From Chthoniobacterales bacterium (GTDB lineage: Bacteria > Verrucomicrobiota > Verrucomicrobiia > Chthoniobacterales > UBA10450): DNA of 64,000 bases. The translations under genes and the position numbers were made by a program. Shown here piece by piece: positions 3,915 through 60,465 of this stretch. The DNA lies in the NCBI GenBank assembly GCA_035274845.1, contig DATENU010000012.1, forward strand, positions 44,908 to 108,907, in the 5' to 3' direction. Numbering within the stretch: the first letter of the stretch is position 1; each line of letters begins with the position of its first letter. The notes beneath the pieces were generated by a model that ran no database searches, had not been told where the DNA came from, and saw only the letters and a list, made by a program, of their open reading frames with translations.

Positions 3915-4150
3915 CTTGCTGTGACAGCCCCGGAGGGGCGTCGGAATAAAGCCCGGAGTAGAGCGCAGCGAAACTCCGGGAACCGATGCAATCGCATTTG
4001 TCCAACCCCTGACAAGGGGTGACGGACGGGCTGAGAGGCCGCGCCTTCCGTCGCCCCTTCTCAGGGCTCATTCCTTGCATCATACACCGGGAGTTTCGCT
4101 TCGCTCCACTCCCGGCTTTAAGTCCGACGCACCCTCCGGGCGCTGTGGCC
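3915..4150. repeat. Dispersed copy of repeat family 1 between the PLP-enzyme gene and murJ
   Basis: Contains cccggagtagagcgcagcgaaactccggg, ccccTGACAagggg and gggagtttcgcttcgctccactcccggc modules shared with 1-215 and 5841-6530. Confidence 0.65.
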
Positions 4151-4160
4151 TTTTCCTCTG

Positions 4161-5786
4161 CTATGCGACGCGCGCCCGACCGAGCTTCCCGCGAACCAGC
4201 TCCACCACATCCCGCACTTCGTCGACGCGAAGCAAATACGCGGCGCCAAAGAACACCCCGGCGCCAGCCACTATGGTGATGAGTAGCCCGGCCGCCTTCT
4301 GCCAAAGGCTGCCGTCGTGCGAAACGAAAATGAAATTCTGCGCGGCGAAGCAAATCCCGGCGAGCAACGCCCCGGCCAGGAACAATTTCGCGAGCGTCCG
4401 CAGCATCACACCGGTTTCGAGACGGCCGACATAACGCCGCATCATGGCGTAAAGGACGAGGAAATTCGTCAGCGCAACCAGGCTGGTGGAAAGAGCGAGT
4501 CCACGGTGGCCGAGGTCCATGCGAAACGTGAAGAACCAATTTAGCGCCACGTTCAACCCGATGGAAAAAAGACTGACCAGCATGGGCAGATTCCGTTTAT
4601 CGAGCGCGTAAAAAGCTGGCGCCAAAACTTTGACCGCGGAATACCCGACGAGCCCGATCGCGTAGAAACGCAACGCGCCTGCGGTTTGAATCGTGGAGGC
4701 GCTGGTGAAGCGGCCATGTTGATAAATCAGGCCGATGATCGGTTCGGCTAAAATCGTAAGACCGATGGCCGATGGAATCGTCAGCAACATGACGAGCCGC
4801 ATCGCGTGAGCGAGCGCCCCGCGAAACTCCGCCTTGTTGCCGAGTGCCGCACTGCGCGAAACAAGGGGGAGCGTCACGGTCGCGATGGCGACGCCGAAAA
4901 TGCCGAGCGGCAATTGCATGAGACGAAAGGCGATGTTCAACCAGCTCACCGGCCCGTCGCCGAGGCGCGCCGCGAAGCCACTATTGATGAGCACGTTTAC
5001 CTGGACGGCGCTGGCGGCGATCACGGCCGGCCCCATGAGCGTGAGGACGGTGCGCACGCCCGGGTCGCGCCAGGAAAAATCGGCCCGGAATTTGTAACCG
5101 ACCCGGCGCAGCGACGGGAATTGCGCGGTCAACTGCCACAGACCTCCGATGAGGGTGCCGATCGAAAGGCCGATCAATGAACGCGCGCCAAAATGCGGAT
5201 CAAACCACCAGCCGAGGGCGACGCCGGCGATGATCGAGCCGAGATTGAAAAAGCTCGACGCCATCGCGGGCATCCCGAAGACATTTTTCGCGTTGAGCAT
5301 TCCCATCGCGAGAGCGGCCAGCGACACCAGGAGGATGAACGGCCACATGATGCGCGTGAGTAAAACCGTGAGCGCAGTCTTTTCCGCGTCCCAACTCCAC
5401 CACGTCATCACGTCGACAAGTTGAGGGGCGAAGAGGATTCCGAGCAGCGTCACCGCGCTCATGAAAACAACCGCCAGCGTGGCCACCTTGTTCGCAAGCC
5501 GCCAGGCGGATTCATCCCCCTCGGTGGCGATCTTTTTCGAAAACGTGGTGATGAACGCGGTTGAGAGGGCGCCTTCGGCAAAAAGGTCGCGCAACATGTT
5601 GGGCACGCGGAACGCCATCAGGAACGCGTCCAGATTTTTTCCAGCGCCGAAGAGCGCGGCGAAAAGCACTTCGCGGATCAGGCCCAGGATGCGGCTGGAA
5701 AGGATGGCGATGCCGACAATGCCGGTCGCGCGCGTGCTCACGCGTTTGTTCGCCGGGATGGCCGCTTCTTTCACGGCGCAACACAA
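4161..5786 (-). CDS. murJ: Lipid II flippase MurJ (MviN)
   Basis: 541-aa polytopic ORF; N-terminal SRILGLIREVLFAALFGAG and MOP-superfamily topology are typical of MurJ. True start may be slightly internal to the ORF. Confidence 0.88.
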   Translation of the reverse strand: MCCAVKEAAIPANKRVSTRATGIVGIAILSSRILGLIREVLFAALFGAGKNLDAFLMAFRVPNMLRDLFAEGALSTAFITTFSKKIATEGDESAWRLANKVATLAVVFMSAVTLLGILFAPQLVDVMTWWSWDAEKTALTVLLTRIMWPFILLVSLAALAMGMLNAKNVFGMPAMASSFFNLGSIIAGVALGWWFDPHFGARSLIGLSIGTLIGGLWQLTAQFPSLRRVGYKFRADFSWRDPGVRTVLTLMGPAVIAASAVQVNVLINSGFAARLGDGPVSWLNIAFRLMQLPLGIFGVAIATVTLPLVSRSAALGNKAEFRGALAHAMRLVMLLTIPSAIGLTILAEPIIGLIYQHGRFTSASTIQTAGALRFYAIGLVGYSAVKVLAPAFYALDKRNLPMLVSLFSIGLNVALNWFFTFRMDLGHRGLALSTSLVALTNFLVLYAMMRRYVGRLETGVMLRTLAKLFLAGALLAGICFAAQNFIFVSHDGSLWQKAAGLLITIVAGAGVFFGAAYLLRVDEVRDVVELVRGKLGRARVA

Positions 5787-5840
5787 CAGCGGAGTCGCGT
5801 TTTACGAAAGCGGAATATGCGGGCGCTCCTTCTGTAACCG

Positions 5841-6530
5841 TCCCCCTGTCCGTCGCCCCTTTCAGGTGCTTGCTTGTTTCGATTCAGACACCGGGAGTTC
5901 CGCTGCGCTTCACTCCCGGCTTTATTCCTTCGCGCGTTTCGGGCGCTGCTTGGCGCCTGCAACAGCCCCGGAGGGGCGCTGGGATTAGAGCCCGGAGTGG
6001 AGCGGCAGCGAAACTCCGGGAACCGACCGATCGCATCTGTTCAACCCCTGACAAGGGGTGACGGAGGGCGCTTCGAATGGCAGGTGTCTCATCAATCGGC
6101 AAACGGGAATAGAGGATCCAATAATCCTTTCGCGTTTTCCGTCGCTCCTTTCAGGGGCTTGCTGGTTTCGATTCAGACACCGGGAGTTCCGCTTCGCTGC
6201 ACTCCCGGCTTTATTCCTTCGCGCCTTTCAGGCGCTGCTTGGCGCCTGCAACAGCCCCGGAGGGGCGTTGGATTAGAGCCCGGAGTGGAGCGGCAGCGAA
6301 ACTCCGGGAACCGATCGAATTGCATTTCCAACCCCGGAAGGGGTGACGGAGGGCACTTCGAATGGAAGGTGTCTCATCAATCGGCAAACGGGAACAGAGG
6401 ATCACCTTTAATCCTTTCGCGTTTTCCGTCACCGCTTCCCAAGGGCTCGCTGGTTTCGAATCATATATCGGGAGTTCCGCTTCGCTTCACTCCCGGCTCT
6501 AATCCCGATGCGCCCTCCGGGCGCGGGTTG
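5841..6530. repeat. Tandem array (about 2.3 copies of a ~293-bp unit) of repeat family 1
   Basis: Unit starts at about 5841, 6134 and 6427 (cgtcgc.cctttcagg.gcttgct.gtttcgattcagacaccgggagttccgc...); multiple internal hairpins. Confidence 0.8.
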
Positions 6531-6604
6531 GCCGCCTGAGATGTTCGAGCGCCCCACGCAAACGCGGCTCCAGCTTGGAGCAGTCTGTGAGGCTCGCCCG
6601 AACA

Positions 6605-6712
6605 CTCGGCGCTGGCCGATGATCGCCACCGAGGGGGATGAATCCGCCTGGCGGCTCGCGAACAAGGTGGCTCGGCGCTGGCCGATGATATACGTCAGTG
6701 ACGTATATCATC
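6605..6712. other. Composite element: 19-bp direct repeat, 51-bp inverted copy of an internal murJ segment (1 mismatch), the same 19-bp direct repeat, then a 29-bp perfect palindrome
   Basis: 6621-6671 equals the reverse complement of 5483-5533 (murJ codons for IATEGDESAWRLANKVA) with one mismatch. ctcggcgctggccgatgat occurs at 6605-6623 and 6671-6689. gatgatatacgtcaGtgacgtatatcatc lies at 6684-6712. Confidence 0.8.
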
Positions 6713-6754
6713 ACCGGTGTTGCTGTTGGTGTCGGTGCAATGGTCGCCGCTTTC

Positions 6755-9700
6755 CTAGGACGAGCTCGATTGCAGGGGCGGAGGGGGAGGAGGCATCGGC
6801 GGTGATGACGGTGACGACGGCACCGGCGGTGGAGAGTCCGGTGGGACTGGAACCGGCGGTGGCGGCGGGACTGGCGGCGGCGGTCCTGCGGGAGGAGGAG
6901 GCGGCGGCGGCGGCTTCTCGCCTTTCGGCACGAGGAAGCGTTGATAGAGAAACGACGCGACGATCAGGATAACCGCGACGCCGATAAAGGCGCCGATGCG
7001 GTAGAGCTGGCTGAGCTGGCTGAGATCATGCAGGAAGAGTTTCGCGAGCGTGACGACCAGAAGGGCCACGCCGGAATAACGGACCCAGCGGGTCTTCTGG
7101 CGCATGCCGATGAGGAGCAACGCAAAGGCGTAAAGCGCCCAGGCGATCGAATAGGTCATGTCCCGCGCGAAGTTGCCTGAGAACGAAAAGGTCAGGGTCG
7201 GCCCGATGGAAAAATAATCGGCAATCTCGATGTTGAGGAGGAGAAAGGTAAGGATCGCGCCTAACGAGTAGAGAGTCGTGGGCGCGGACCGTTCGAAGAC
7301 CGTGTTCCGCGGCGGCCGAATCAGCCAGGCGCCGGCAAAGAGGCAGACGATGGTAATTCCGTAAGCATACAGGTACCAATTCAGGATCGGGGTGGGAGTG
7401 CGGCGATGATATTCCAGCACGGCCGGGTTCAGGGCGAGCCGAACGAAGGCCAGGCAGAGCAAGCCGAAACCGACGTAACGGAGCCCGCGGTTCGGAACCC
7501 GCCGGAACAACCAGAGGAGCGCCAGGCCTTCCAATGCCCAACCCAGCGTGATCCATTCCCGGTCGAACTGGATCGGGAAAATGAGGGTAATGAAAAACAA
7601 CGCGGCCCCGCCTTGCCACGCGAGCCGCGCATCGCCAGTGGCGGGATCCGCCTGGCGGTTACGGATGAGAAAGAAAACGGCGATCGCATACGGAACAACG
7701 AAAGCAGCGGGAGCGAGGCCGTTCTGCAACCCGGGGAACGCCTTCGTGATGGTGTCGTAGATGAGCGCGAACTGGAGCGGGCCCGCGAGCGCGCCAATCG
7801 CCCACGGCAACGCCTTCCGTTCTTCCGAGGTGAAAAACGGAAACGCGAAGAAGATCAGGAAAAACGCCGTCTGCCATCCGAGCGCGAGGGCGGCGTAATC
7901 AATGTGGAAATTCGGGGCGCCCTGCCATTCACATTGGACGAGCCAGCCGAAAACGAGCGCGATAAGCGCGATCCAACTCGTGCGGGCGATGACCGCGAGG
8001 CCCAGCAATAGCACGCAGAGAACAAACGTGGTGAGGAAATAGGGCGTCGGATTCGCCGCCGGCAGCTTGGTCATTGCCATCATGATCAGGACAAACGGAA
8101 GCGAGGCGGCGAGCGCGGGGATGTTGCGGCGCGCATGCGGCGAATCGGGGAAGAAGCGTCGCGCCGTGAAGAGTAACACCGAGAAAAACAAAGTGCCCGA
8201 CCCCGCGGCGACAATGAGAAAGCTGCTCAGGTCGATGTCCGGCTCGCCGGCTGAGATCCAAAGAAACGCAGAAATGAAGGTGAGGACGACAGCGCCGGCG
8301 ATGGCGAGCACCGAGCGTCGGACGAGCGCGACACCGATGACGACGAAGTCGAGAATGAGGAGACAGAACCAGACTGCGGAACCGGTTTGATTTTTCGAGA
8401 CGCAACTCCAGATCAGGACCAGCGGCAGAAGCGGAAGATAACTGAGCCAGGGCGATCGTTCTGCGTCAGGTCCCGTTGTTCTCGGCCAGACCGCGAAGCC
8501 CGCGTGAAAAATCGAATACGCGACGTAACCGCCCAGCGCCCACCAGAGTGAAGCGGACGTCAGGTACATCCCGGTCCAGATCGCGAGAAAAAGGAAAACG
8601 ATTCCGCCGGCGAGCGGGACGACCAGGTCGCGTTTGGAATAAAAGAAGGCGAGCGCGAGCAGGCCCGCTTCGGCCACAAACATGTAGGTGAAGAGGAAAC
8701 CAGGTCGCGGCCCAAAGTCCCGGTAACTCAACAGGCAGAACCCCCAGGCGAGTGCCGCCAGGCAAACCGCGATGGCAGCGCGCGCGGTCCAGTTGGCCGG
8801 AGGATGCAACCGGCGCGCCCAGGCAAAGATGGCGAGAAACTGCACTTCGAAGCCGATGAAAACGGCAAAAGCGGTGTTGCCTTTCCAAGGCACAAAAAAC
8901 TTCGCGGCCCAGGCGAATTCCATCACGATCGTCCCGGCCGCCGCGAGCAGAACCAGATAATCCCATCGTTTGCGCAGGGCGACGGCGGCAACCCCAACGT
9001 TCAGGACGGCGATGTAACCGAACAGCGCGGTCGGATTATCGACGCCAGTCGAGAGCAAGACCGGCGTGAGAAATCCGCCGAGGAGCCCGAGCACGACGAT
9101 GACCTGCGCGTTCATGCGAACCGCGAGGAAGAACGCGGCCGCGGTCACGACCGCCATGAAAGCGAACGCCGGAACGAGGGCGATCAAATGGTAGTAAACG
9201 TGCGCCGCAAAGATGTTGCCGTAGAGAACCAGGACGCCAGTCGCACAAAGGCTCTGGCCGGAGACGCGATATCGCCGAGTGGAGGTGAACCAACCGGTGA
9301 TGACAAGGCCGACACCGAGCACCGTCCCGATAGCGACGCGCATTGCGGGCGTGATCAGGTTGTTGTCGAAGGAATATTTTACCAGGAAGACGATCCCGAG
9401 GAAGAGGACGAACCCGCCGATCCAGGCGAAAAGTTTCACTCCGAAAAATGCTTCCCAATCGAACGGCTTTGCGGGGACCGGTGGCGGCGGCGGCGGGACA
9501 ATCGGCGGCGGTTGGAACGCTGGCATCGGCGGGACCGGGGGCGGTTCCGGTGGAGGTGGAGGCACAGCCGGCTGCGATGGGATCGGCACCGTGGCTATCG
9601 GTGGAGGCGGAGGCGCGGACACCGTTTCCGCGGCTCGCGCGGGCACGGTCGCTACAGCCTGCGCCGCTGCTGGTGGCGCGACGGGAGCGCGGCCGCCGCC

Positions 9701-9838
9701 TGCTTCCAGTTCCGCCACGCGCCCAACCAAATTGCGAACCGCACTCTTGAGTTTGCAGATCTCGACGATGCCCACGATCACCAGAGCAATCGGGACGAGG
9801 AAGACCAGCAGGCCGATACAAACGAATGTGTTTTCCAT
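6755..9838 (-). CDS. Giant polytopic membrane protein, DUF2339-like, with poly-proline tracts at both termini
   Basis: 1027-aa ORF with more than 20 predicted hydrophobic helices. The proline-rich N-terminus followed by FDWEAFFGVKLFAWIGG is typical of DUF2339 proteins. C-terminal PPPPPPPPAGPPPPVPPPPPVP stretch. Confidence 0.7.
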   Translation of the reverse strand: MENTFVCIGLLVFLVPIALVIVGIVEICKLKSAVRNLVGRVAELEAGGGRAPVAPPAAAQAVATVPARAAETVSAPPPPPIATVPIPSQPAVPPPPPEPPPVPPMPAFQPPPIVPPPPPPVPAKPFDWEAFFGVKLFAWIGGFVLFLGIVFLVKYSFDNNLITPAMRVAIGTVLGVGLVITGWFTSTRRYRVSGQSLCATGVLVLYGNIFAAHVYYHLIALVPAFAFMAVVTAAAFFLAVRMNAQVIVVLGLLGGFLTPVLLSTGVDNPTALFGYIAVLNVGVAAVALRKRWDYLVLLAAAGTIVMEFAWAAKFFVPWKGNTAFAVFIGFEVQFLAIFAWARRLHPPANWTARAAIAVCLAALAWGFCLLSYRDFGPRPGFLFTYMFVAEAGLLALAFFYSKRDLVVPLAGGIVFLFLAIWTGMYLTSASLWWALGGYVAYSIFHAGFAVWPRTTGPDAERSPWLSYLPLLPLVLIWSCVSKNQTGSAVWFCLLILDFVVIGVALVRRSVLAIAGAVVLTFISAFLWISAGEPDIDLSSFLIVAAGSGTLFFSVLLFTARRFFPDSPHARRNIPALAASLPFVLIMMAMTKLPAANPTPYFLTTFVLCVLLLGLAVIARTSWIALIALVFGWLVQCEWQGAPNFHIDYAALALGWQTAFFLIFFAFPFFTSEERKALPWAIGALAGPLQFALIYDTITKAFPGLQNGLAPAAFVVPYAIAVFFLIRNRQADPATGDARLAWQGGAALFFITLIFPIQFDREWITLGWALEGLALLWLFRRVPNRGLRYVGFGLLCLAFVRLALNPAVLEYHRRTPTPILNWYLYAYGITIVCLFAGAWLIRPPRNTVFERSAPTTLYSLGAILTFLLLNIEIADYFSIGPTLTFSFSGNFARDMTYSIAWALYAFALLLIGMRQKTRWVRYSGVALLVVTLAKLFLHDLSQLSQLYRIGAFIGVAVILIVASFLYQRFLVPKGEKPPPPPPPPAGPPPPVPPPPPVPVPPDSPPPVPSSPSSPPMPPPPPPLQSSSS

Positions 9839-15145: not shown

Positions 15146-15219
15146 GGTAGGGACGGCGCGCTGCGCCGTCCGCAAACGCGCGGCCACCTAAAAGGACGCC
15201 GCAGCGCGGCGTCCCTACC
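15146..15219. repeat. REP-like palindromic element (family 4: GGTAGGGACG.CGCGCTGCG.CGTCC ... GGACGCCGCAGCGCG.CGTCCCTACC)
   Basis: Imperfect long inverted repeat between the holB 3' end and the fabG 5' end; related copies at 17476-17556 and 60404-60457. Confidence 0.7.
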
Positions 15220-16189: not shown

Positions 16190-16846
16190 TCAGATTTGCG
16201 ATTTGCGATTTGCGATTTGCGATTGAACCGCCGTCCAGACCTGGGCTTCGATTGCATCGGCGGATTGGGCGCCGTCGATCAGGATGAAACGATCGGGCTC
16301 GGATTGGGCGAGGTCGCGATAGCCGGCGGAGACGCGTTCGTAGAATTCGATGGGTTCCTGTTCCATCCGGTCTTTCACTTCAACCGGACGAACGCGGCGA
16401 AGCATCCGTTGCCGAGCGGTCTCGACGTCGACGTCGAGGAGGAAGGTCACGTCGGGGCGGGCGTCGCCGATGGCGAAGGCGTTCAGGGTTTGGACAATCT
16501 CCGGCGGGAGCTTGCGCGCGACGCCCTGATAGACGGTGGTCGAATCGAAAAAGCGATCGGAGATGACGATCATCCCCTGTTCCAGGGCGGGCGCAATCGT
16601 TTCGCGGACGAGCTGGGCGCGGCTGGCTTCGAAGAGCAGCAGCTCCGTTTCCGGCGTCATGGCGAAACTCTCCGGAGCAAACTGCAACAGGTCGCGGATC
16701 TTTTCCCCGATGGCGGTGCCGCCGGGCTCGCGGGTGACGAGCGTGCGCAGACCCGCCTGCTCGAGCCGGGTTGCGAGCCCAAGCGCCTGCGTCGATTTTC
16801 CGCAGCCTTCCGAGCCTTCGAATGTGATGAACAGGCCGCGAGCCAT
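16190..16846 (-). CDS. tmk: Thymidylate kinase
   Basis: 218-aa ORF; FITFEGSEGCGKST P-loop and DRF motif. The C-terminus carries a 7-bp x4 tandem repeat (16194-16221). Confidence 0.9.
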   Translation of the reverse strand: MARGLFITFEGSEGCGKSTQALGLATRLEQAGLRTLVTREPGGTAIGEKIRDLLQFAPESFAMTPETELLLFEASRAQLVRETIAPALEQGMIVISDRFFDSTTVYQGVARKLPPEIVQTLNAFAIGDARPDVTFLLDVDVETARQRMLRRVRPVEVKDRMEQEPIEFYERVSAGYRDLAQSEPDRFILIDGAQSADAIEAQVWTAVQSQIANRKSQI

Positions 16847-16904: not shown

Positions 16905-17037
16905 AAGCTTCAAGGAGCGGCGGTTTGAAACCGCCGATGTTTTTCTAGCGGCGCCCTCCATCCGTTGCAGGGGCTATCAACAAATCGATGCCCTACAGCC
17001 TCGGTCGGCGGTTTCAAACCGCCGCTCCTTGAAGCTT
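16905..17037. repeat. REP-like element family 2 (caaggagcggcggtttgaaaccgccg ... cggcggtttcaaaccgccgctccttgaagc inverted pair)
   Basis: Inverted repeat of a hairpin module that is also found at 33288-33392, 41286-41356 and inside the 55737-56290 tandem array. Confidence 0.7.
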
Positions 17038-17072: not shown

Positions 17073-17480
17073 GTGAAACAATTCTGGCTGGTGAAACAGG
17101 AACCGTCGGCCTACTCGTGGACCGACTTTGTCCGCGACGGCAAAACAGCGTGGACGGGCGTGCGGAATTTCACCGCCCGGAACAATCTTCGCGCGATGCG
17201 CAACGGCGACGCGGCGTTTTTCTATCACAGCGTGACGGAAAAGGCGGTGGTCGGGATCGCGAAGGTCGTGCGGGAAGCGTATCCCGATCCGACGGCAAAA
17301 GAAGGCGACTGGAGCGCGGTTGATTTGGCGCCGGACAAGGCGTTGTCCAAACCGGTGCCCCTCGAGGAGATCAAGAAAAACGCGAAGCTGAAGCAAATGG
17401 CGCTGCTGCGTTTGTCCCGGCTCTCGGTTCAACCGGTGACGAGCGCCGAATTTGAAGAGATTGTTCGCATGGCAAGGTAG
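17073..17480 (+). CDS. EVE (PUA-like) domain protein
   Basis: ORF 16965-17480. Family-typical N-terminus VKQFWLVKQEP begins at GTG 17073. Confidence 0.7.
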   Translation: MKQFWLVKQEPSAYSWTDFVRDGKTAWTGVRNFTARNNLRAMRNGDAAFFYHSVTEKAVVGIAKVVREAYPDPTAKEGDWSAVDLAPDKALSKPVPLEEIKKNAKLKQMALLRLSRLSVQPVTSAEFEEIVRMAR

Positions 17481-17556
17481 GGAGGCCGCGCTGCGGCGTC
17501 CGCGCTAATTGCGGATCGTTCAGCTACAGCGGACGGCGCGGCGCGCCGTCCCTACC
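17476..17556. repeat. REP-like palindromic element (family 4)
   Basis: ggtagggaggccgcgctgcggcgtccgc ... gcggacggcgcggcgcgccgtccctacc immediately after the EVE gene stop. Confidence 0.7.
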
Positions 17557-25903: not shown

Positions 25904-26230
25904 ATGCGTCTCCGCCACGTCTACCTCGCGCTCTGTCTCCCCGGGCTTGTCCTGCCCTACTGGAAACTCGTTCCCTGGATCATCGATCACGGCCTGAACC
26001 TGACGTTGCTTTGCCAGGAATTGTTCGCGACCCGCATCGGCGCGTTCTTTGGGCTCGACGTCGTCGTTTCCGCAATCGTCCTTTTCGTTTTTGTCGCGAC
26101 CGAAGGCCGGCGCCTCGCGATGCCGCGCCTCTGGCTTCCCATCCTCGCCACCCTTCTGGTCGGCGTTTCGCTCGGCCTGCCACTCTTCCTTTATCTTCGC
26201 CAGCGCCGCCTCGACGCCGGCCCTCTGTAG
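25904..26230 (+). CDS. Small membrane protein (DUF2834-like)
   Basis: ORF 25835-26230 with internal M at 25904 (MRLRHVYLALCLPGLVLPYW...); 3 hydrophobic helices. Confidence 0.45.
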   Translation: MRLRHVYLALCLPGLVLPYWKLVPWIIDHGLNLTLLCQELFATRIGAFFGLDVVVSAIVLFVFVATEGRRLAMPRLWLPILATLLVGVSLGLPLFLYLRQRRLDAGPL

Positions 26231-26312
26231 CGGCGGTCTCAGACCGTCGACATCGAGACATCGCCCGCGCTCTCGTTGACTTGATTCGGATTGATTTTAC
26301 GTTGCGGAACCG

Positions 26313-28121
26313 GTGCCGCGCCGGTTTGAAACCGTGAAAAGCGTCCTTTTCGTTTGTACTGGAAATATCTGCCGAAGCCCGATGGCGGAGGGCCTTTTTC
26401 GCCGTCTGCTCGGCAATCGCAAGGACATCGAAATCGCGTCCGCCGGTGTGCACGCAGTCCGGGGGCAACCGCCGAGTTTGCATGCCATTCACGTCTGCGA
26501 GCAGGAAGGGGTCGACATCCGCGGATTGCGAAGCCAGCCGCTTACCGCCGCGATGGTCGACCGCGCCACCCACATCTTCGCGATGACGGGCGCCCATCTC
26601 GACACGATCCACACCTACTTTCCCCAGGCGATCGACAAAACGTTTCTCCTTCGCGAATTCGAGGAACCCTGCGTGTCGCTCGATGTGCCGGACCCGATCG
26701 GGTGCAGCCGGGACGTTTACAACCACTGCGCCGGCACAATCAAAAACGCTTTACCGACCGTGCTCGCGTTCGTAGAACAAAGCGAACTCGCAGTCCCTGC
26801 GAAATCGCGCGGCGGCGGAACCTCATCTTTCACCATGGCAGATCCCGACATCTCATCCGGCTCCGGAAAAACATCCACTTCGACCGGAGGCCCGTTGAGC
26901 AAGGTCGATCCCGAAATTTTCGCCGCCGTCCAGGCCGAAGAGAATCGGCAACGCGAAAATATCGAGCTGATCGCGTCCGAAAATTTCACCAGCCGCGCCG
27001 TGATGGAAGCGCAGGGCAGCGTTCTCACCAACAAATACGCGGAAGGTTACCCGAAGAAGCGCTGGTATGGCGGTTGTGAAAATGTCGATACCGTCGAGCA
27101 GCTCGCGATCGACCGCGCGAAGCAGCTCTTCGGTTGCGAGCACGTCAACGTCCAGCCGCACTCCGGCGCCCAGGCGAACATGGCCGTTTACTTCTCGATG
27201 CTGAAGCCCGGCGACAAAATTCTTGCGATGAATCTCGCCCATGGCGGCCATCTCACCCACGGCCATCCCGCGAATTTCTCCGGCAAATTCTACGAAGTCT
27301 CGCAATACGGTGTCAGCGCCGAGACCGAGCAGATCGATTACGACGCGTTGCAAAAACAGGCCGAGGAGTTTCGTCCCGCCATGATCACGGCCGGCGCCTC
27401 AGCCTACCCGCGCATCATCGATTTCCCGCGGATGCGCCAGATCGCCGATTCCGTCGGCGCGCTTTTGTTCATCGACATGGCGCACATCTCCGGCCTCGTC
27501 GCCGGCGGCCAGCATCCCAGCCCGATCCCGCACGCCCAGTTCGTCACCACCACCACGCACAAAAGCCTGCGCGGCCCGCGCGGCGGCATCACGATGTGTA
27601 CCGCCGAACACGCGAAAGCGATTGACGGCACTGTCTTCCCCGGCATTCAGGGCGGCCCGCTCATGCACGTCATCGCGGCGAAAGCCGTCTGCTTCCACGA
27701 AGCCCTCCAGCCCGGCTTCCGCGATTACCAGCGCCAGGTCGTGGTCAACGCCAAAGCCCTCGCCGCTGGATTAACCAAACACGGTTACCGGATCACCTCC
27801 GGCGGCACCGACAACCACCTCATGCTGGTCGATCTGCGCCCGAAAGATTTGAACGGCAAAGTCGCCCAGGAAGTCCTCGACCGCGCCGGTATCACCGTGA
27901 ACAAGAACGGCATCCCCTTTGACACCTACCCCATCTTCAAACCCGGCGGCATCCGCATCGGCACACCCGCCGTCACCACGCGCGGCATGAAAGAAGAAGA
28001 TATGCTGGAAATCGCCGACCTCATCAACGACGCCCTCCAAGCCCGCGACGACCAACCCGCACTCGACCAAATCCGCGGAAAGGTGCGCGAACTGACGCGA
28101 AGATTTCCGCTACCGAGCTAA
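26313..28121 (+). CDS. glyA: Single ORF joining an LMW phosphotyrosine/arginine phosphatase domain (aa 1 to about 155) and serine hydroxymethyltransferase (aa about 185 to 602) through a G/S/T-rich linker
   Basis: [16 protein letters not shown] (CX5R P-loop) at the N-terminus. SHMT core [10 protein letters not shown]...[10 protein letters not shown] (PLP-lysine) follows. No stop between domains, same frame; internal ATG at 26835. Confidence 0.8.
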
Positions 28122-28133
28122 GCCGCGACTGCA

Positions 28134-28847: not shown

Positions 28848-29031
28848 CGAAACTTGATGGCATCCGAATCGGCCGACCCGCCGTCACGACGCGCGACATG
28901 AAAGAAGAAGAAATGCTCGAAATCGCCGACCTCATCAACGACGCCCTCACCCACCGCGACGACCAACGCGCCCTCGACCAAATCCGCGCCAAAGTCCGCG
29001 AACTCACGCCGCGGTTTCCGCTTCCGTCGTA
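28848..29031 (+). pseudogene. Diverged duplicate of the 3' end (last ~56 codons) of the serine hydroxymethyltransferase ORF (att-like remnant)
   Basis: 28861-29031 aligns with 27960-28121 with several mismatches (e.g. gaaatcgccgacctcatcaacgacgccctc identical); encodes ...[44 protein letters not shown]. Confidence 0.8.
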
Positions 29032-29207
29032 AGTTGTTTACCGGCCCCCGCTCGCTTCACCGCTCCCGCATCCTTTCCGTACCCACCTAAGCCTCTTTGC
29101 CCTTGTCGCGCGCAAACGCTTTTGATAAACAAAACTGTGTTTTCCCTTTTGCGCGCATCAGCCGCTCCCCAGAATTGAGTTAAGACCGCTCCAGTAACAC
29201 GATACCA

Positions 29208-33094: not shown

Positions 33095-33287
33095 ATTTTA
33101 TCCTTTTTTAACCTTCATCGCGTTCGACACCACGCCGCGTCAGACGCTGAATGGGTTCATTCGATTTTTTCCAATAATTCCGTGGGGTGGGCATGGCAGT
33201 TGTTGCCGTGTCGCAGCGACAGAAAGACACTGTGGGCCTAACGAGCCGCAGCCATGCAGGTTCCGCGGCTTGGCATGCGGATTGAAA

Positions 33288-33392
33288 CCAAGGAGCGGCG
33301 CTTTCCGAACCGCCGTCTTTCCGCGCTTTCAGCGCGAGATACTGGTCGCGCCGTTGGCGCGCCTCGGTGGTTTGGAAAGCGCCGCTCCTTGG
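33288..33392. repeat. REP-like element family 2
   Basis: caaggagcggcgctttccgaaccgccg ... cggtggtttggaaagcgccgctccttgg inverted pair in the flotillin/zwf divergent intergenic region. Confidence 0.6.
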
Positions 33393-33449
33393 GTTTGCAA
33401 TTTTGCTCTTACCTAAGCGGCGCTATTCTGCCTAAATCGATATCGCGCC

Positions 33450-35016: not shown

Positions 35017-36087
35017 ATGGGAACGGAAACCACAACGACCAATACTCCAATACTCCAACACTCCATTTCCCCCGGTCTGCCGGTCGAGATCGATAAGATT
35101 GGGCGGGAACTCAAAAGGCTTTGGGGGGAAGGCGGGGGCGCGAAAACACGGGCATCGCTGATCAATCTCGCAATCTACAGCGAGGTGCCGGGATCGCTTC
35201 CGGAGAATACGCGAATCATTTCTGAGATCACGGAAGACCATGCCTGCCGGGCGATCGTCATCGGCGCGAATCCGGCGGCGAAAGAGAACCGGGTCGAAGC
35301 CTGGATCAATGTTCATTGCCACGTCAGCCGGGCGGGAAGCAAACAGGTCTGCTCGGAACAACTTTCATTCGTGCTCGCAGGGCCCTCGACCCGTCTCCTG
35401 CCGAACATTGTTTTTTCGCAGTTGGATTCAGATTTGCCGCTGGTGCTTTGGTGGCAGGGCGAGTTTTCCGACCCGATGGACGCGCAACTGTGGGCCTGGG
35501 TCGATCGGGTGGTTTACGACAGCCAGACCTGGAAGGATTTCCGGATTCAGATCGAGCGGGTCGAAACCGCGCAGGCGGAAGCGAAGCAACGGATCGTTTT
35601 GTGCGACTTGAATTGGACGCGGCTCGTCCAAATCCGCCTCGCCCTGGCGCAATTCTTCGACCACCCGGCTACGCACGCGAAGTTCGATGAAATCGAGAAC
35701 GTCGAAATCGATTATGCGCCGGGCTTTCGCTCGACCGCGATCCTCCTGGCGGGATGGCTTGCCGCCCAGTTGCATTGGAGCGAGGGGAAGAAATCTGCGG
35801 AAGATGGGTTGAGTTTCCGCGGCAGCAAGAAAAATGAGATCGGGATCGCGTTAAAGGAAAAGGAGGGCGAGCCGATCGGGCGCTGTGCGTTGCAATGCGG
35901 GGCGGTCGCGTTCACGGTCAGCCACGCGCCGAAGGCGGACCTGCTTGACGTGGCGGCCGGCGAACGGCGCTGCCGGATGCCGGCAGGGCATAATGATGCC
36001 GTGCGTTTGATGAGCGAAGAGCTGATGCGCGGCGGGCCGCACAAGGTTTATCTGCGGGCCATAAATTGCGTGCGGGATCTTCTGTAG
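35017..36087 (+). CDS. opcA: Glucose-6-phosphate dehydrogenase assembly protein OpcA-like
   Basis: 356-aa ORF immediately downstream of zwf with OpcA-like N- and C-terminal domains. Confidence 0.7.
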   Translation: MGTETTTTNTPILQHSISPGLPVEIDKIGRELKRLWGEGGGAKTRASLINLAIYSEVPGSLPENTRIISEITEDHACRAIVIGANPAAKENRVEAWINVHCHVSRAGSKQVCSEQLSFVLAGPSTRLLPNIVFSQLDSDLPLVLWWQGEFSDPMDAQLWAWVDRVVYDSQTWKDFRIQIERVETAQAEAKQRIVLCDLNWTRLVQIRLALAQFFDHPATHAKFDEIENVEIDYAPGFRSTAILLAGWLAAQLHWSEGKKSAEDGLSFRGSKKNEIGIALKEKEGEPIGRCALQCGAVAFTVSHAPKADLLDVAAGERRCRMPAGHNDAVRLMSEELMRGGPHKVYLRAINCVRDLL

Positions 36088-36140
36088 CGGCGGTCTCTGA
36101 CCGTCGAGCCCGTTCGATTTTCGGCGGTCAGAGACCGCCG

Positions 36141-37325
36141 CTACAGGGCGAAAATCGCCTGCAATTGCCGCGCGCTATCCTGGATCGAGAACTTCTCTTG
36201 CGCGATCTCTCTGCCGCGGTCGCCCAACTCGCGGGCCCGTTCAGGATTGTCGAGCAGGCGTTCGACGGCCGCACCGATCGCCTCCGGATCATGCTCGGGC
36301 ACCAGCTCGCCGTTGACGCCGGGTTCCACCATTTCGGGAACGCCCGCGAGCGGCGTCGAGATCACCGGCAGCCCGGCCGCCATCGCCTCCATGACGACTG
36401 TGGGCAAATTGTCCATTCCGCCGCCCTCTTCGCGCGCGCAGGGCAGGACGAAAATCGTGGCCTTCGCCAGGCGCTGGGCGATTTGCGGCTGCGTTTGCGG
36501 ACCGATTAATCGTACGACGCCTTCTAAACCGGCGCCGGCAATCTGGGCTCGCAAACTTTCCTCGAGTGGACCTTCCCCGATGATATCGCAAACAACCCTT
36601 CGTCCCCGGTTCTTAAGGAGCGCGCAAGCCCGGATGAGATCCGCGAAGCCTTTTTTCTCGATTAACCTCCCGATGGAAATGAGCGCCGGGGTTTCGGCCC
36701 CAAAATCGGCCGGCTGAAAGCAGGAAAGATCGATTCCATTGTAGACCCGATGAATTCGAGCGGACTCGTTCGGAAAACGGGTTTTCAGAAAATCGGCCGC
36801 GTAATCGCTCACGGTGACGATCGCCGCGGCGCTTTCCATTATTTTCGGCAAAGAGATGGCGAAATCGCGCGGCGCAAAAATATCGTTGGCGTGTCCGGTA
36901 AAGCTGAACGGGATGCCGAAGAACTGCTTGATCCACCAGGCGGTGCGCGCCGCCATCCCGGCAAAGTGGGCATGAAGATGACCCAGACCCTTCTCCTGCA
37001 TCCGCTTTCCGACATAAATCGCCTGGTATAGCCGGAGGAAGTCGGACTGCCTCCCCCATTGCTGGATCGCGGTCCGGGGCGCACCCGAGAGAGGTTTTTG
37101 CCGAAGCGTGGCCTCGACTTCCTCAACGAGGGGTTTCTCCTCCGGAAGATAATGGACGCGGTCGACGATCTGTTTGTCCCAATCCTGTGGAGGCTCATTG
37201 GCCGGCCGCCGGATCGAGAAGGCGTGCACTTTCGTCCCCTGCCGCTCCAGTTCCGCCACCTCGCGATAACAAAAGGTCTGCCCGAAGGAGGGGAACCGCT
37301 CGAAAAGGTAGGCGACCTCGCGCAT
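36141..37325 (-). CDS. Glycosyltransferase family 4 (GT-B)
   Basis: 394-aa ORF; C-terminal FVLPCAREEGGGMDNLPTVVMEAMAAGLPVISTPLAGVPEMVEPGVNG is the GT4 EX7E region. Confidence 0.8.
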   Translation of the reverse strand: MREVAYLFERFPSFGQTFCYREVAELERQGTKVHAFSIRRPANEPPQDWDKQIVDRVHYLPEEKPLVEEVEATLRQKPLSGAPRTAIQQWGRQSDFLRLYQAIYVGKRMQEKGLGHLHAHFAGMAARTAWWIKQFFGIPFSFTGHANDIFAPRDFAISLPKIMESAAAIVTVSDYAADFLKTRFPNESARIHRVYNGIDLSCFQPADFGAETPALISIGRLIEKKGFADLIRACALLKNRGRRVVCDIIGEGPLEESLRAQIAGAGLEGVVRLIGPQTQPQIAQRLAKATIFVLPCAREEGGGMDNLPTVVMEAMAAGLPVISTPLAGVPEMVEPGVNGELVPEHDPEAIGAAVERLLDNPERARELGDRGREIAQEKFSIQDSARQLQAIFAL

Positions 37326-41285: not shown

Positions 41286-41356
41286 TCAAGGAGCGGCGGT
41301 GTCTTCACCGCCGATGAATTAGGACGGCGGTTTCAAACCGCCGCTCCTTGAAGCTT
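41286..41356. repeat. REP-like element family 2
   Basis: caaggagcggcggtg...ggacggcggtttcaaaccgccgctccttgaagc. Confidence 0.6.
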
Positions 41357-43396: not shown

Positions 43397-44557
43397 ATGA
43401 GGGATGGAGAAAACGTCCAACGTCCAACGTCCAACGTCCAACGCCGAACTTCAGGGACGATTACGCATCTCTACGTTCATATTCCGTTTTGCGCGAGGAT
43501 TTGCCCCTACTGCGCTTTTTACAAGGAGCGCGCAGACAGCTCCCAAACCCAGCGGTTCTGCGAAGCGCTCCTGCGGGAAATTGAGAGCGTCGGCGAGCTG
43601 CACCCGTTGCAGCCGCGAACGATCTTTTTTGGCGGTGGGACACCAACGGCGCTGACGACGACGCAATTGGAATTTCTCCTGAGTGGAATGCGCGAGCGCC
43701 TCGATTTGACGGAGCTCGTGGAATGGACATTGGAAGCGAATCCGGGGAGCGTGTCGCCTCGCAAGGCGGCATTGCTCCGGAGCCTGGGCGTCAGCCGCCT
43801 CAGCCTGGGCGTGCAATCCTGGGATGACGAATTGCTGAAGCTCCTCGGTCGTGAACATGACGCTGCGCAGGCGGAGACCTCTTTTCGAATCCTGCGCGAG
43901 GCCGGGTTTCAGAACATCAGCATCGACCTGATGTTCGGTTTGCCGGGACAAACGCTGGCGCAATGGCAGTCCGATCTGAAAAAGACGATCGCGCTTCAGC
44001 CAGAGCATATCTCGACCTACTGCCTGACCTACGAGGAGGACACGGAGTTTTTTCTCCGGCATGCGCGCGGCGAATTCCGGGAAGATTCGGAATCGGACGC
44101 GCGTTTCCTGGAGGCGGCGATGCAAATGCTCGAGGAGGCCGGATTCCAGCACTACGAGATTTCCAACTACGCGCGGCCCGGCTTCGCTTCCGCCCATAAT
44201 CGCGGGTACTGGGCCGGCGACGATTATCTGGGGATCGGGCCGAGCGCCTTTTCCACCATCGGATTACGGCGCTGGCAAAACGTAGCGGATTATCGCGCCT
44301 ACGCGGACCGGGTGCTGGCGGGTTCGTCACCAGTCGGTTCAACCGAAGTCCTTACGTCCGAGATGAAGCGAACGGAACGGATCGCGCTCGCCTTGCGGAC
44401 GCGGGAAGGAATTTCCTCGAGCGAGCTGATTTCATGGCCCGAAGAGAGTCGCGAGTTCGTTAACCTGGGTCTTTTGCGGGAACTCAACGGCAATTTTGTT
44501 CTTACGTCGCGCGGCAAGCTACTCGCCGATTCCGTCGCCGAAGCGTTCGTCCCGTAA
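43397..44557 (+). CDS. hemW: Radical SAM heme chaperone HemW (coproporphyrinogen III oxidase-like)
   Basis: LYVHIPFCARICPYCAFY CX3CX2C radical-SAM motif and HemN C-terminal domain. The N-terminal coding region contains a 7-bp x4 repeat (43413-43440). Confidence 0.85.
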   Translation: MRDGENVQRPTSNVQRRTSGTITHLYVHIPFCARICPYCAFYKERADSSQTQRFCEALLREIESVGELHPLQPRTIFFGGGTPTALTTTQLEFLLSGMRERLDLTELVEWTLEANPGSVSPRKAALLRSLGVSRLSLGVQSWDDELLKLLGREHDAAQAETSFRILREAGFQNISIDLMFGLPGQTLAQWQSDLKKTIALQPEHISTYCLTYEEDTEFFLRHARGEFREDSESDARFLEAAMQMLEEAGFQHYEISNYARPGFASAHNRGYWAGDDYLGIGPSAFSTIGLRRWQNVADYRAYADRVLAGSSPVGSTEVLTSEMKRTERIALALRTREGISSSELISWPEESREFVNLGLLRELNGNFVLTSRGKLLADSVAEAFVP

Positions 44558-47118: not shown

Positions 47119-49323
47119 CTACCGCGTGCTGGTGAGCGCCCGCTTCAGGGCCGAGGAGGATTCCGACGTGCTCCGCCTCTTGGAGGAAAAGTTGCGGTTC
47201 GTGTCGAAGTGATAACTGCCGTCGTGGGTGAAGGTATTCATCGCCACCCGATAATTCGCTCCGCCGCCGGAGAGTTTCCGGTGTGATGCGATGAATTTCG
47301 TCGGGTCGAAGTAATTGCTGAAATCCTTCTGGAATTTCGAGCGGCTCATCCCGATCTCCAGGTTCTTGCGAATCTCGAAATGGAGATGGGCATCATACTG
47401 GCCGTGCGCGGTCCCCATGGTGGCGATTTGCTGACCGCGCGAGACTTTCTGCCCGCGGCTCACCAGCATCGTATTCAAATGCCCGTAGAGCGCGTCGATG
47501 TATTTGACCGTCCCGCCTTCCCGATAGGCGTGGCGCACGATGATCACGTTCCCCCACCCCAGATGGACATCGCGCGCGAAAACCACGATCCCGTCGCCAA
47601 TGCTGTAAATCGGATCCCGGAGATCGGTGTCGCCGCCCCGGACGCCGTCCCAATCCTCGCCCATGTGTCCATGGACGCGGTAGCCGCGAGCCTTGTAATA
47701 ACCTTCCGCTTCCGGTTTACCCACTGGGAAATCGAATCCGTCCGCCATCTTGGTAAAGGCGGTGTCGAACGAGGAACTGTTCGCCGGAATCAGTGAAGGG
47801 GGCGTTGCCAGTGACGAAACCGAAACCGGATCGACCTTCGTGGTCAGGGTTTTCGGGGGAACCATCGGCTCCGGCTTCGCGGCCTTTTCTGCCTTTTCTG
47901 TGGCGGATTCAGGCTTGGCCGCCACGATCGGCAGCTTTTCTTTCGATGTGGCCACCTTCTCTGCCTTTGGCGTTACCGGCTCAGCCTTCGCCGTGTCGGT
48001 TTTCGAGCTGGGTTTTGTGGAATTCTCGTCTTTCGGCGCGCCTTTCTCCTTCTTTGCGACGGTTGCCTCGGTCTTCTCGGTCTGGGCCTTCGCCGTGGCG
48101 CTGGCCGATTTCTCCTTGGCCGCGCTCTTGTCTCCCTTAACCGGTTCGGCTTTGGCGGTCTCGGTTTTCGGGTTTGCTTTGCTGGCGACCTCATCCTTCG
48201 GTGCGGCCGCCGCTTTATCCTTCTTCGCTACCACCGGATCAGCCTTTTCCGGCTGGGTTTTCGCGGTCGTGGCGCTGGCCGGTTTTTCCTTTACGGCGCT
48301 GGGCTTGTCGCCTTTGGCTGATTCGGCCTTCGCGGTCTCGGTTTTCGAGCTAGGGGTAGAGACCATCTCATCTTTCGGCGGGGCGGCCTTTTCCTTTTTC
48401 GCGACAGCCTGATCAGCTTTTTCGGTCTTCGCCTTTGCGGTCGAGGCGGTGGCTGCTTTCTCCTTGGCCGCGTTGTGCTTGTCCTCTTTGGCTGGTTCGG
48501 CCTTCGCTGTCTCGGTTTTTGGAGTCGAGCTGGCGGCAGCCTCGTCCTTCGGAGGAGCCGCCTTTTCCTTCTTCGCGACGACTGGATCCTTCTCCTTCTT
48601 CGCGGCGGCCGGATCGACTTTTTCAGGCTGCGCCTTCGCGGTCGTGGCGCCGGCCGGTTTCTCCTTTACGGCGCTGGGCTTGTCGCTTTTTGCGGGTTCG
48701 GCCTTCGCGGGCTCGGTCTTCGCAACCGAGTTGGCTGCCGATTCTTCCTTCTCTTTCGCTTTCTCCGTCTTCGCCTTCGCGGTCTCAACCTTGGCGGAAT
48801 CTTTGGGGGTCTTGGCGGAGGTTTCGGCTGGATGCGCCTTCTCGGTCTTCTCCTTGGGCGGTTCGGTTTTCGCCACCGTCTTGCTCGCGGATTCCTCCTT
48901 CACCGGAATGGCTTTCTCCACCTTTGAGGAATCGGTCTTCGCGGTCTCGGTCTTTGCCGAAGAGGCGGACGCGGTCTTTTCTTTCGTTACGGCAGGTTTT
49001 TCGGTCTTTGCAGTCGCGACCTCCGTCTTCGGCTTCTCTTCCTTCTTCGCCGCGGTTTTGGCGGCTGATTCTTCTTTCGCCACCAGAGGTTTCGCAGCCG
49101 GCGCCGATTTCTCCTTCGTCTCGACCGGCGTAACCGCTTCGGCGCGTTTGACTATTTCCTTCGGGGGCGCGGCTTTGGGCGCCTTCGCTTCCGGGGCGGC
49201 TCCCTTGGTCGGCGGATGGACTGGAGTGGCCTTCAATTCGCGGGGAATAAAGATCTCCTGGCCAAAGCAAAGGCCGGACATGGCAAGCCAGCAAAACAGT
49301 GTCGTGGTGACGGTACGCGACAT
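47119..49323 (-). CDS. M23 family metallopeptidase with a long N-terminal K/A/E/T-rich tandem-repeat region
   Basis: 734-aa ORF; signal peptide; about 11-13 imperfect ~45-aa repeats (KTETAKAEPAK.DKPSAVKEKPA.ATTAK.QPEK.DP..AKKEKAAPPKDE); C-terminal LytM/M23 domain (HGHMGEDWDG...GWGNVIIVRH...HLHFEIR). Confidence 0.82.
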   Translation of the reverse strand: MSRTVTTTLFCWLAMSGLCFGQEIFIPRELKATPVHPPTKGAAPEAKAPKAAPPKEIVKRAEAVTPVETKEKSAPAAKPLVAKEESAAKTAAKKEEKPKTEVATAKTEKPAVTKEKTASASSAKTETAKTDSSKVEKAIPVKEESASKTVAKTEPPKEKTEKAHPAETSAKTPKDSAKVETAKAKTEKAKEKEESAANSVAKTEPAKAEPAKSDKPSAVKEKPAGATTAKAQPEKVDPAAAKKEKDPVVAKKEKAAPPKDEAAASSTPKTETAKAEPAKEDKHNAAKEKAATASTAKAKTEKADQAVAKKEKAAPPKDEMVSTPSSKTETAKAESAKGDKPSAVKEKPASATTAKTQPEKADPVVAKKDKAAAAPKDEVASKANPKTETAKAEPVKGDKSAAKEKSASATAKAQTEKTEATVAKKEKGAPKDENSTKPSSKTDTAKAEPVTPKAEKVATSKEKLPIVAAKPESATEKAEKAAKPEPMVPPKTLTTKVDPVSVSSLATPPSLIPANSSSFDTAFTKMADGFDFPVGKPEAEGYYKARGYRVHGHMGEDWDGVRGGDTDLRDPIYSIGDGIVVFARDVHLGWGNVIIVRHAYREGGTVKYIDALYGHLNTMLVSRGQKVSRGQQIATMGTAHGQYDAHLHFEIRKNLEIGMSRSKFQKDFSNYFDPTKFIASHRKLSGGGANYRVAMNTFTHDGSYHFDTNRNFSSKRRSTSESSSALKRALTSTR

Positions 49324-55732: not shown

Positions 55733-55736
55733 CTCT

Positions 55737-56290
55737 GCAGCAACGGCGCTGTGTCGCCGTTAAAAAGAACACGTCGGGTGTCGCTGCGGCTTTTTATGCC
55801 GACCCGTAAAGCAGACCAAAGAGCGAGGCCGGCTTTCAAAGCGGCGCTGCTGCAGACGGCGGTTTGGAAAGCGCCGCTCCTTGCTCCGGCTTAGCGAATC
55901 GACCAATTGGATCATGCCAAACCTGCCATTCCATCTTCGAAGGCGCGCCGCAATCTTGACGGCTTTAAGCCGTCAAGATCTGGGCACGTGCTGTAGCAAC
56001 GGCGCTCTGTCGCCATTAAAAAGAACACGTCGGGTGTCGCTGCGGCTTTTTATGCCGACCCGTAAAGCAGACCAGAGAGCGAGGCCGGCTTTCAAAGCGG
56101 CGCTGCTGCAAACGGCGGTTTGGAAAGCGCCGCTCCTTGCTCCGGCTTTGCGAATCGAGCAATTGGATCATGCCAAACCTGCCATTCCATCTTCGAAGGC
56201 GCGCCGCAATCTTGACGGCTTTAAGCCGTCAAGATTTGGGCGCGTGCTGAAGCAAAGGCGCTCTGTCGCCGTTCAACGCTATCCACAGCG
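55737..56290. repeat. Tandem array (about 2.1 copies of a ~256-bp unit) that contains the REP family 2 module and a perfect hairpin cttgacggcTTTAgccgtcaag
   Basis: Units start at about 55737, 55993 and 56248 (partial); lies between convergent gene 3' ends. Confidence 0.8.
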
Positions 56291-60403: not shown

Positions 60404-60457
60404 GGTAGGGACATCGCGCTGCGATGTCCGTGGACGCCGCAGCGCGACGTCCCTACC
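60404..60457. repeat. REP-like palindromic element (family 4)
   Basis: ggtagggacatcgcgctgcgatgtccgtggacgccgcagcgcgacgtccctacc between the HAAO stop and the ACMSD start. Confidence 0.7.
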
Positions 60458-60465
60458 ATGTCTTT

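Follow-up and report, generated by a model that had tools for sequence, protein, structure and literature searches.

In the spacer upstream of the lipid II flippase gene murJ of a bacterium of the Chthoniobacterales (Verrucomicrobiota), we found an inverted copy of an internal segment of that same gene, enclosed by two copies of a short direct repeat and adjoining a perfect palindrome. The structure is genuine and unusual. We consider it fairly probable that it is a young, lineage-specific mutational scar, produced by a microhomology-primed templated insertion at the edge of the palindrome. While the instance is new, the kind of mutation is already known.

Anatomy of the inverted murJ copy

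We analyzed a stretch of 64,000 nt (64 kb) from contig DATENU010000012.1, which is called the window throughout. The features that concern the insertion are the following:

4161-5774, minus strand: murJ, lipid II flippase gene (Pfam MurJ, 7e-115); likely start GTG 5774, in line with the calls in relatives (the mechanical ORF begins at TTG 5786).
5482-5532, minus strand: source segment, codons 81-98 of murJ counted from GTG 5774; coding sequence conserved in all relatives.
5785-5812, minus strand: conserved murJ leader motif CGCTTTCGTAAAACGCGACTCCGCTGTT, about 28 nt, the only part of the spacer common to relatives.
5849-6505: hairpin-forming tandem repeat of 289 bp, 2.3 copies, filling most of the spacer and not part of the insertion event.
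6605-6623: first direct repeat (DR1), CTCGGCGCTGGCCGATGAT; its last 3 nt, GAT (6621-6623), are common to the murJ source and form the left-junction microhomology.
6624-6670, plus strand (murJ-sense, inverted with respect to the gene): insert, 47 nt matching only murJ, within a full homology of 6621-6671.
6671-6689: second direct repeat (DR2); its first base, C (6671), is common to the murJ source and forms the right-junction microhomology.
6684-6712: palindrome GATGATATACGTCA-G-TGACGTATATCATC, perfect 14+1+14, 29 bp, located 43 bp beyond the stop codon of DUF2339, on its 3' side.
6755-9838, minus strand: DUF2339 membrane protein gene (Pfam 1.1e-90), found directly upstream of murJ in every close relative.

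The reverse complement of murJ 5482-5532 is present at 6621-6671, with a single mismatch in 51 nt (98% complementary), inverted in relation to its source and separated from it by 1,088 nt (~1.1 kb). The initial annotation had described this copy with the correct length and mismatch, but had placed the source one base off, at 5483-5533. The plus strand of the copy encodes IATEGDESAWRLANKVA, and the sole difference, CTT in murJ versus CTC in the copy, is synonymous and falls on a fourfold-degenerate Leu position. Copy and source together make up the longest inverted repeat of the window. At a minimum length of 35 nt and a minimum identity of 95%, the 1.02 Mb formed by the window and the related loci contains just four inverted repeats. 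The three besides this one are hairpin elements of the multi-copy, REP-like type, for which reason we rejected the idea that similar events had recurred in relatives. A search for further templated patches in 6500-6760 gave nothing above chance-level 12-13-mers, and the possibility that the spacer is a patchwork of several templated pieces was discarded because none goes beyond chance.

Both the 19-bp repeat and the 29-bp palindrome right behind it were confirmed exactly where they had first been described, the latter being indeed AT-rich for this genome (38% GC vs ~60% for the window). The repeat occurs exactly twice in 64 kb, even allowing three mismatches (mean of 0.06 matches in shuffled sequence); there are no differences between DR1 and DR2, and neither can be extended by one base on either side. 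The last 6 nt of DR2 (GATGAT) are also the first 6 nt, that is, the outer end, of the palindrome, which is predicted to fold as a 13-bp DNA hairpin (-13.9 kcal/mol, z = -4.1).

Inverted chimeras are a known amplification artefact, and the structure might be explained by an assembly or sequencing error, either a chimeric contig or an inverted chimera formed during MDA or PCR. The window genes for NIF3 and MsrA have exact matches on Logan contigs from run SRR5195144, and contigs L091 and L092 are identical to the window (100%) over 5.7 kb, which argues against such an error. By means of the partial DUF2339 product of the neighboring contig, predicted from a 30-nt overlap, we retrieved contig L094 of the same run (k=31 assembly), which matches window positions 9127-6627 with no mismatch and spans the palindrome, DR2, the junction between DR2 and the fragment and the copy-specific C. 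This contig terminates exactly 30 nt (k-1) into a 36-nt run that is identical in murJ. Since a k=31 graph must branch inside the shared run if both contexts exist in the reads, such an end point is the expected one. Every 31-mer over the right junction is therefore present in the reads and an assembly chimera is essentially excluded there, which disposes of misassembly, named in the initial annotation as a danger to its claim, at this junction; the left junction (6623/6624, between DR1 and the fragment) lies outside L094 and has no independent recovery, and the Logan assembly may come from the same reads as the window. Nevertheless, a chimera would not give a clean 19-bp duplication together with one diverged base, and we regard an artefact as extremely unlikely. 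At DR2, L094 is unbroken and gives no sign of an abundant empty allele, although bubble popping could hide a minor one.

Origin of the insertion

Comparison with related genomes, which had been suggested together with the original description, spoke against conservation of the fragment and its repeats. We examined 85 Chthoniobacterales DUF2339/murJ loci, that is, 80 genome loci, the four closest DUF2339 contigs and L093, and neither the inverted fragment nor the direct repeat nor the palindrome was found in any of them (0/85), indicating that the element is lineage-specific. The closest relative found was L093, with 93% amino acid and 85-88% nucleotide identity. No DUF2339 from the same species was found in protein databases, in which the best matches are 84-93% identical, and exact-protein look-ups with the full DUF2339, with MurJ from its GTG start, with the DUF2339 fragment from codon 240 and with the MurJ fragment from codon 84 gave no match. 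As the closest relative is only ~85-88% identical in DNA, no empty-site allele was found among the related loci, all of which lack the repeat and the palindrome as well as the insert; the metagenome scan for the palindrome gave no orthologous empty site. Hence we infer the ancestral state rather than observe it.

The insertion appears to be young, because there is one substitution in the 51 nt of the copy and none between the 19-bp repeats. Most of the closest relatives, namely L002, L003, L006 and L086, also have the copy-specific C, suggesting that it was probably murJ itself that changed after the copying. At 1748-1753, which corresponds to window 5527-5532, the contig of L093 breaks off 5 nt into the murJ segment that acted as the source in the window. 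We took this for a probable coincidence and not for the trace of a repeat in L093, since a de Bruijn contig would run k-1 nt into a repeat.

The templated insertion may have proceeded as follows. The ancestral spacer would have contained a single CTCGGCGCTGGCCGATGAT running into a functional 29-bp palindrome just 3' of DUF2339, the empty site reading CCCGAACACTCGGCGCTGGCCGATGATATACGTCAGTG. During replication or break repair, the growing 3' end would have stalled or broken 6 nt inside the palindrome arm (...GATGAT). It would then have annealed anew, through GAT, with the opposite murJ strand at a distance of 1.1 kb, and ~48 nt would have been copied there. For a fork going from murJ to DUF2339, that opposite strand would be the lagging-strand template, within the range of an Okazaki fragment. 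The event would end with the 3' end back on its first template, 19 nt before the place it had left, the microhomology at this step being a single nt (C). The outcome would be an insertion of 66 bp, consisting of 47 nt of inverted murJ and a 19-bp target duplication, with GGTGGCTCGGCGCTGGCC as the filled junction.

The local inverted source, the 3 + 1 nt of microhomology and the location of the left junction, 6 nt inside the palindrome arm, point to a single templated event. Capture of a random genomic fragment would give a source as near as 1.1 kb with P ~3-7e-4, and a total junction microhomology of at least 4 nt has P ~0.018 under blunt joining. Three features expected of templated insertions were found at this site: a nearby reverse-complement source, microhomology at both switch points and an adjoining palindrome able to form a hairpin. 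In addition, an inverted repeat of 6 nt, GCCACC...GGTGGC, delimits the copied tract; such a boundary occurs in only 0.13% of murJ windows and in 2/32 relatives, and it hints at the involvement of a hairpin in setting the endpoints. Bacteria offer well-documented cases, at quasi-palindromes, of template switching in which nearby sequence is written as its reverse complement, and such cases are known elsewhere too (PMC5453318, PMC8794818, PMC7202029); palindromes are hotspots for breaks, rearrangements and inverted duplications (PMC4245961, PMC3315005).

The insertion is similar to the template-switch mutations of the bacterial mechanism of Ripley and Lovett and of the four-point model of Loytynoja and Goldman (PMC5453318), in which a reverse-complement copy is also made in one event beside an inverted repeat, and like them it leaves a long perfect inverted repeat beyond the reach of point mutations. 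It differs from them in the length of the jump, 1.1 kb against tens of bases, in having its arms in different transcription units, and in the return 19 nt behind the departure, which creates the flanking duplication. Under the four-point TSM criterion the return does not come before the departure, whereas here the 19-bp duplication puts point 4 before point 1, an order that was never observed in the four-point survey of human and chimpanzee data (PMC5453318). Because the flanking duplication needs this order, a simple switch within the fork is disfavored, and a break-induced (MMBIR-like) variant or one based on synthesis-dependent end joining fits better. MMBIR/FoSTeS and synthesis-dependent end joining with filler DNA (PMC5120786, PMC4032859) have in common with our case a short templated insert, 1-3 nt of junction microhomology, duplication of the flank and a source near the breakpoint; they have, however, been described mostly in eukaryotes, and no Ku/LigD gene was seen in the window. 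Two other points count against the templated insertion, namely that the 1.1-kb jump exceeds typical short-range switches and that the 29-bp palindrome is far shorter than those experimentally cleaved in Escherichia coli.

A repeat-insert-repeat arrangement may also arise through enzyme-mediated integration of a short double-stranded DNA with staggered cleavage of the target, the 19-bp repeat then being the filled-in target duplication. The integration could have been an off-target insertion of a "neo-CRISPR" spacer by Cas1-Cas2, or a transposon excision site could have been refilled with filler DNA. The layout, with its exact target duplication, agrees with such a process. As far as the account of Nivala et al. 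(2018) given through PMC6698737 and bioRxiv 10.1101/148544 goes, off-target spacer integration can spawn new repeat-spacer units in E. coli by duplication of the target, and in some systems inverted-repeat motifs influence the choice of site by Cas1-Cas2 (PMC6698737). On the other hand, a 19-bp repeat and a 47-nt spacer are outside the usual CRISPR dimensions (spacers of ~30-40 bp; PMC6698737), and there is a single unit; with two repeats and one spacer, both size and unit number led us to reject a CRISPR array or neo-CRISPR unit. The ~50 ORFs of the 64-kb window yielded no gene for an integrase, a transposase, Cas, RT or Ku/LigD, and the direct repeat has no further copies in the window or in the related loci. 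For a captured free fragment, an origin within 1.1 kb is expected in just ~0.03-0.07% of cases; strand-transfer chemistry would not be expected to leave microhomology at the junctions (P ~0.018), and the insert is conserved coding sequence instead of a mobile element. We therefore see integration as a very unlikely source of the structure. Of the insertion footprint of a self-derived fragment that the initial annotation had offered as its second option, the target duplication and the self-derived insert come close to the templated insertion favored here, while the site-specific or CRISPR-like integration does not stand.

Other candidates were considered as well. A transposable element with a target-site duplication was rejected, as the insert is a single-copy piece of murJ coding sequence and no transposase was found in the window. 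So was a diversity-generating retroelement: there is no RT in the window, the synonymous T/C mismatch is not adenine-specific, and the copy is intergenic and inverted. The tRNA scan found none, and therefore no tRNA-linked integration site.

If the reading as a mutational scar is true, an uncultured verrucomicrobium from soil provides a clean natural case of a template switch, associated with a palindrome and primed by microhomology, that wrote a 51-nt inverted copy of an essential gene upstream of the gene itself. It would show how long perfect complementarity, the raw material for antisense or hairpin regulators, can originate in one step, and would serve as a warning against taking every striking self-complementarity close to an essential gene for a regulator.

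Potential for antisense regulation

Any minus-strand RNA over the site would be antisense to murJ codons 81-98. The geometry expected at the outset for such a transcript (~50 nt of complementarity) was corroborated by duplex prediction, according to which 51/51 positions pair, the mismatch turning into a G-U pair, with ~-119 kcal/mol; the helix also appears in the MFE structure of a hypothetical read-through RNA. That a crossing minus-strand RNA could pair with the murJ mRNA is the only predictable activity of the insert.

On this ground, the copy might act as an antisense or long-range leader-CDS pairing element, which would lower or gate MurJ synthesis by means of duplex formation and RNase III cleavage. 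The RNA carrying the 51 antisense nt would be either read-through from DUF2339, acting as an extended leader for murJ, or a short RNA that begins at the palindrome. DUF2339 and murJ are on the same strand and come as close as 42 bp in relatives, what makes their co-transcription plausible and, consequently, also transcription across the site in the window. Furthermore, the core of the palindrome has an operator/-10-like position upstream of an HTH cassette in L090 (see below) and might in theory act as an operator or a regulated promoter.

The proposal that the element regulates the lipid II flippase nonetheless found no support. It is missing from every related locus, and in 5400-7100 no sigma-70-like minus-strand promoter and no intrinsic terminator were found by a consensus scan that may not cover the promoter types of the phylum. 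Searches against Rfam, at gathering thresholds for the whole window and at permissive ones for 5700-6800, returned no match save chance long-hairpin matches to plant miRNA models. The copy is nearly identical to its source, which shows that it arose recently and is no sign of its having been maintained. Besides, a 51-bp perfect duplex in the mRNA of an essential gene is more likely to be harmful than regulatory, and the conserved proximal leader was kept, ~800 nt from the site and with strongly hairpin-forming repeats between them. We thus consider a regulatory effect unlikely and rate a selected function lower still; the insert is probably without one.

Bacterial cis and trans antisense RNAs and long-range 5'UTR-CDS pairings also present extensive complementarity to the coding region of an mRNA. 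The 51-bp perfect duplex predicted here is, however, much longer than typical sRNA seeds, and no promoter, terminator or conservation was found at this site. The two views might be combined in a regulatory RNA at its birth, where a template switch beside a protein-bound palindrome would have placed murJ under the gating of a 51-bp leader-CDS helix, possibly controlled by the binder of the palindrome; we judge this decidedly improbable. If true, it would be a bacterial counterpart of the de novo birth of hairpins and miRNAs by template switching (PMC8794818; bioRxiv 10.1101/2023.04.19.537475).

The palindrome, the spacer and other repeats

Scanning JGI metagenomes for the core of the palindrome, we recovered five soil contigs that are mutually orthologous and unrelated to the window. 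All of them have a sequence of 27-29 nt (ATGATATACGTCAGTGACGTATATCAT) identical to that of the window between the 3' ends of two convergent genes:

L081, L082, L083, L084 and L085, at about 875, 880, 199, 455 and 1961, respectively: palindrome in soil contigs (metagenome scan).

In the alignment of these contigs, 28/28 palindrome columns are invariant, whereas ~30% of the surrounding intergenic columns vary; by our own calculation, the chance of 28 invariant columns is 0.7^28, or ~5e-5. Both in the window and in the soil contigs the palindrome sits just 3' of genes, although the loci are non-homologous. The palindrome is a separate, constrained unit, and probably a binding site for a protein. 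A sequence-invariant palindrome at unrelated loci of different organisms may merit a study of its own. About 45 nt from the palindrome, the same contigs have an 18-nt tandem duplication (CCATCGCCACGCTTGGGG x2) where an ORF for a small membrane protein has its 3' end, which is a second instance of a duplication near ATGATATACGTCAGTGACGTATATCAT.

In the viral contig L090, a 10-1-10 core of the palindrome, AATATACGTCA-A-TGACGTATATT, is located at -28 to -8 of a two-gene cassette (2020-2628). The first ORF of the cassette is truncated (phrog_5869), the second encodes an HTH protein of the MqsA/NadS type, and an endolysin gene is found nearby. By our own estimate, a core match such as this one is expected by chance ~5% of the time, and its position is only a lead toward a possible operator-like role for the palindrome. 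The idea of a degraded toxin-antitoxin cassette beside the palindrome was dropped, as the proteins of the L090 cassette had no tblastn match in the window. A search of a plasmid database with DR2 plus the palindrome had no match. The core motif of dif sites is ATAA-N6-TTAT, and the palindrome does not contain it. A dif/Xer site was rejected, given that GC skew does not change sign at 6.7 kb and that the 14-1-14 symmetry is complete, in contrast to the canonical 11-6-11 organization.

The gene order NIF3, DUF2339, murJ is conserved in relatives, and in the window a Cys/Met PLP enzyme gene is convergent with murJ. The spacer between DUF2339 and murJ has 968 bp in the window, and includes the leader, the 289-bp repeats, ~100 nt of unique DNA, the fragment between its two direct repeats, the palindrome and another 43 nt that reach to the stop codon of DUF2339. 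In relatives it measures 42 bp (L089), 105 bp (L086), 115 bp (L088) and 240 bp (L093), with longer spacers in L002, where there are hairpin elements, and in L003, about 1.1 kb with a whole extra gene. The 968-bp spacer of the window is a lineage-specific accumulation of insertions. The extra gene of L003 is desaturase-like, and L001 retains just its 5' remnant. The spacer as a whole is a remodeling hotspot (L001-L004, L086-L089, L093), with differing GC-rich hairpin elements in L002, L004, L088 and L093. The conserved palindrome and this repeat-invaded spacer are more reusable leads than the inverted copy.

The copies of the 289-bp repeat show 89% matches, and each unit is a predicted hairpin of ~200 nt (DNA MFE -68.9 kcal/mol, z = -4.4). 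Partial copies of the family are present at 3919-4145 and 7-142, and none at the murJ loci of relatives. It looks like a MITE/REP-like element. On the other side of the spacer, the window DUF2339 has a Pro-rich C-terminal tail of ~45 aa that is missing in nearly all homologues and is lineage-specific; matches cover only ~80% of the C-terminal DUF2339 query, and the tail region (6758-6900) is linked to a tandem repeat with a 24-nt period (6839-6914).

Elsewhere in the window, we observed intergenic families of GC-rich, REP-like palindromic elements, at 1273-1298, 26225-26250 and 36082-36146; 16905-17037 and 41325-41356; 15146-15219, 17476-17556 and 60429-60460; and 33285-33395 and 55854-56139. 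Similar elements occur in relatives, one copy being inside the DUF2339 coding region of L087. A 256-bp tandem repeat (55735-56270; 2.1 copies, 96% identical) contains REP-like hairpins. Perfect heptanucleotide microsatellites are found at gene boundaries, GATTTGC x4.6 at 16193-16224 and AACGTCC x4.6 at 43412-43443, and could be slippage-prone tracts. Between 28000 and 31000 the GC content is low (0.51-0.53 vs ~0.60) and the ORFs have no Pfam matches, and a 184-nt direct repeat, 83% identical, is present at 27939-28122 and 28850-29033; the low-GC stretch may be foreign or rearranged DNA. Finally, a coding repeat with a period of 174 nt and 2.8 copies (48097-48588) lies within a gene with an M23 peptidase domain (ORF 47119-49323).
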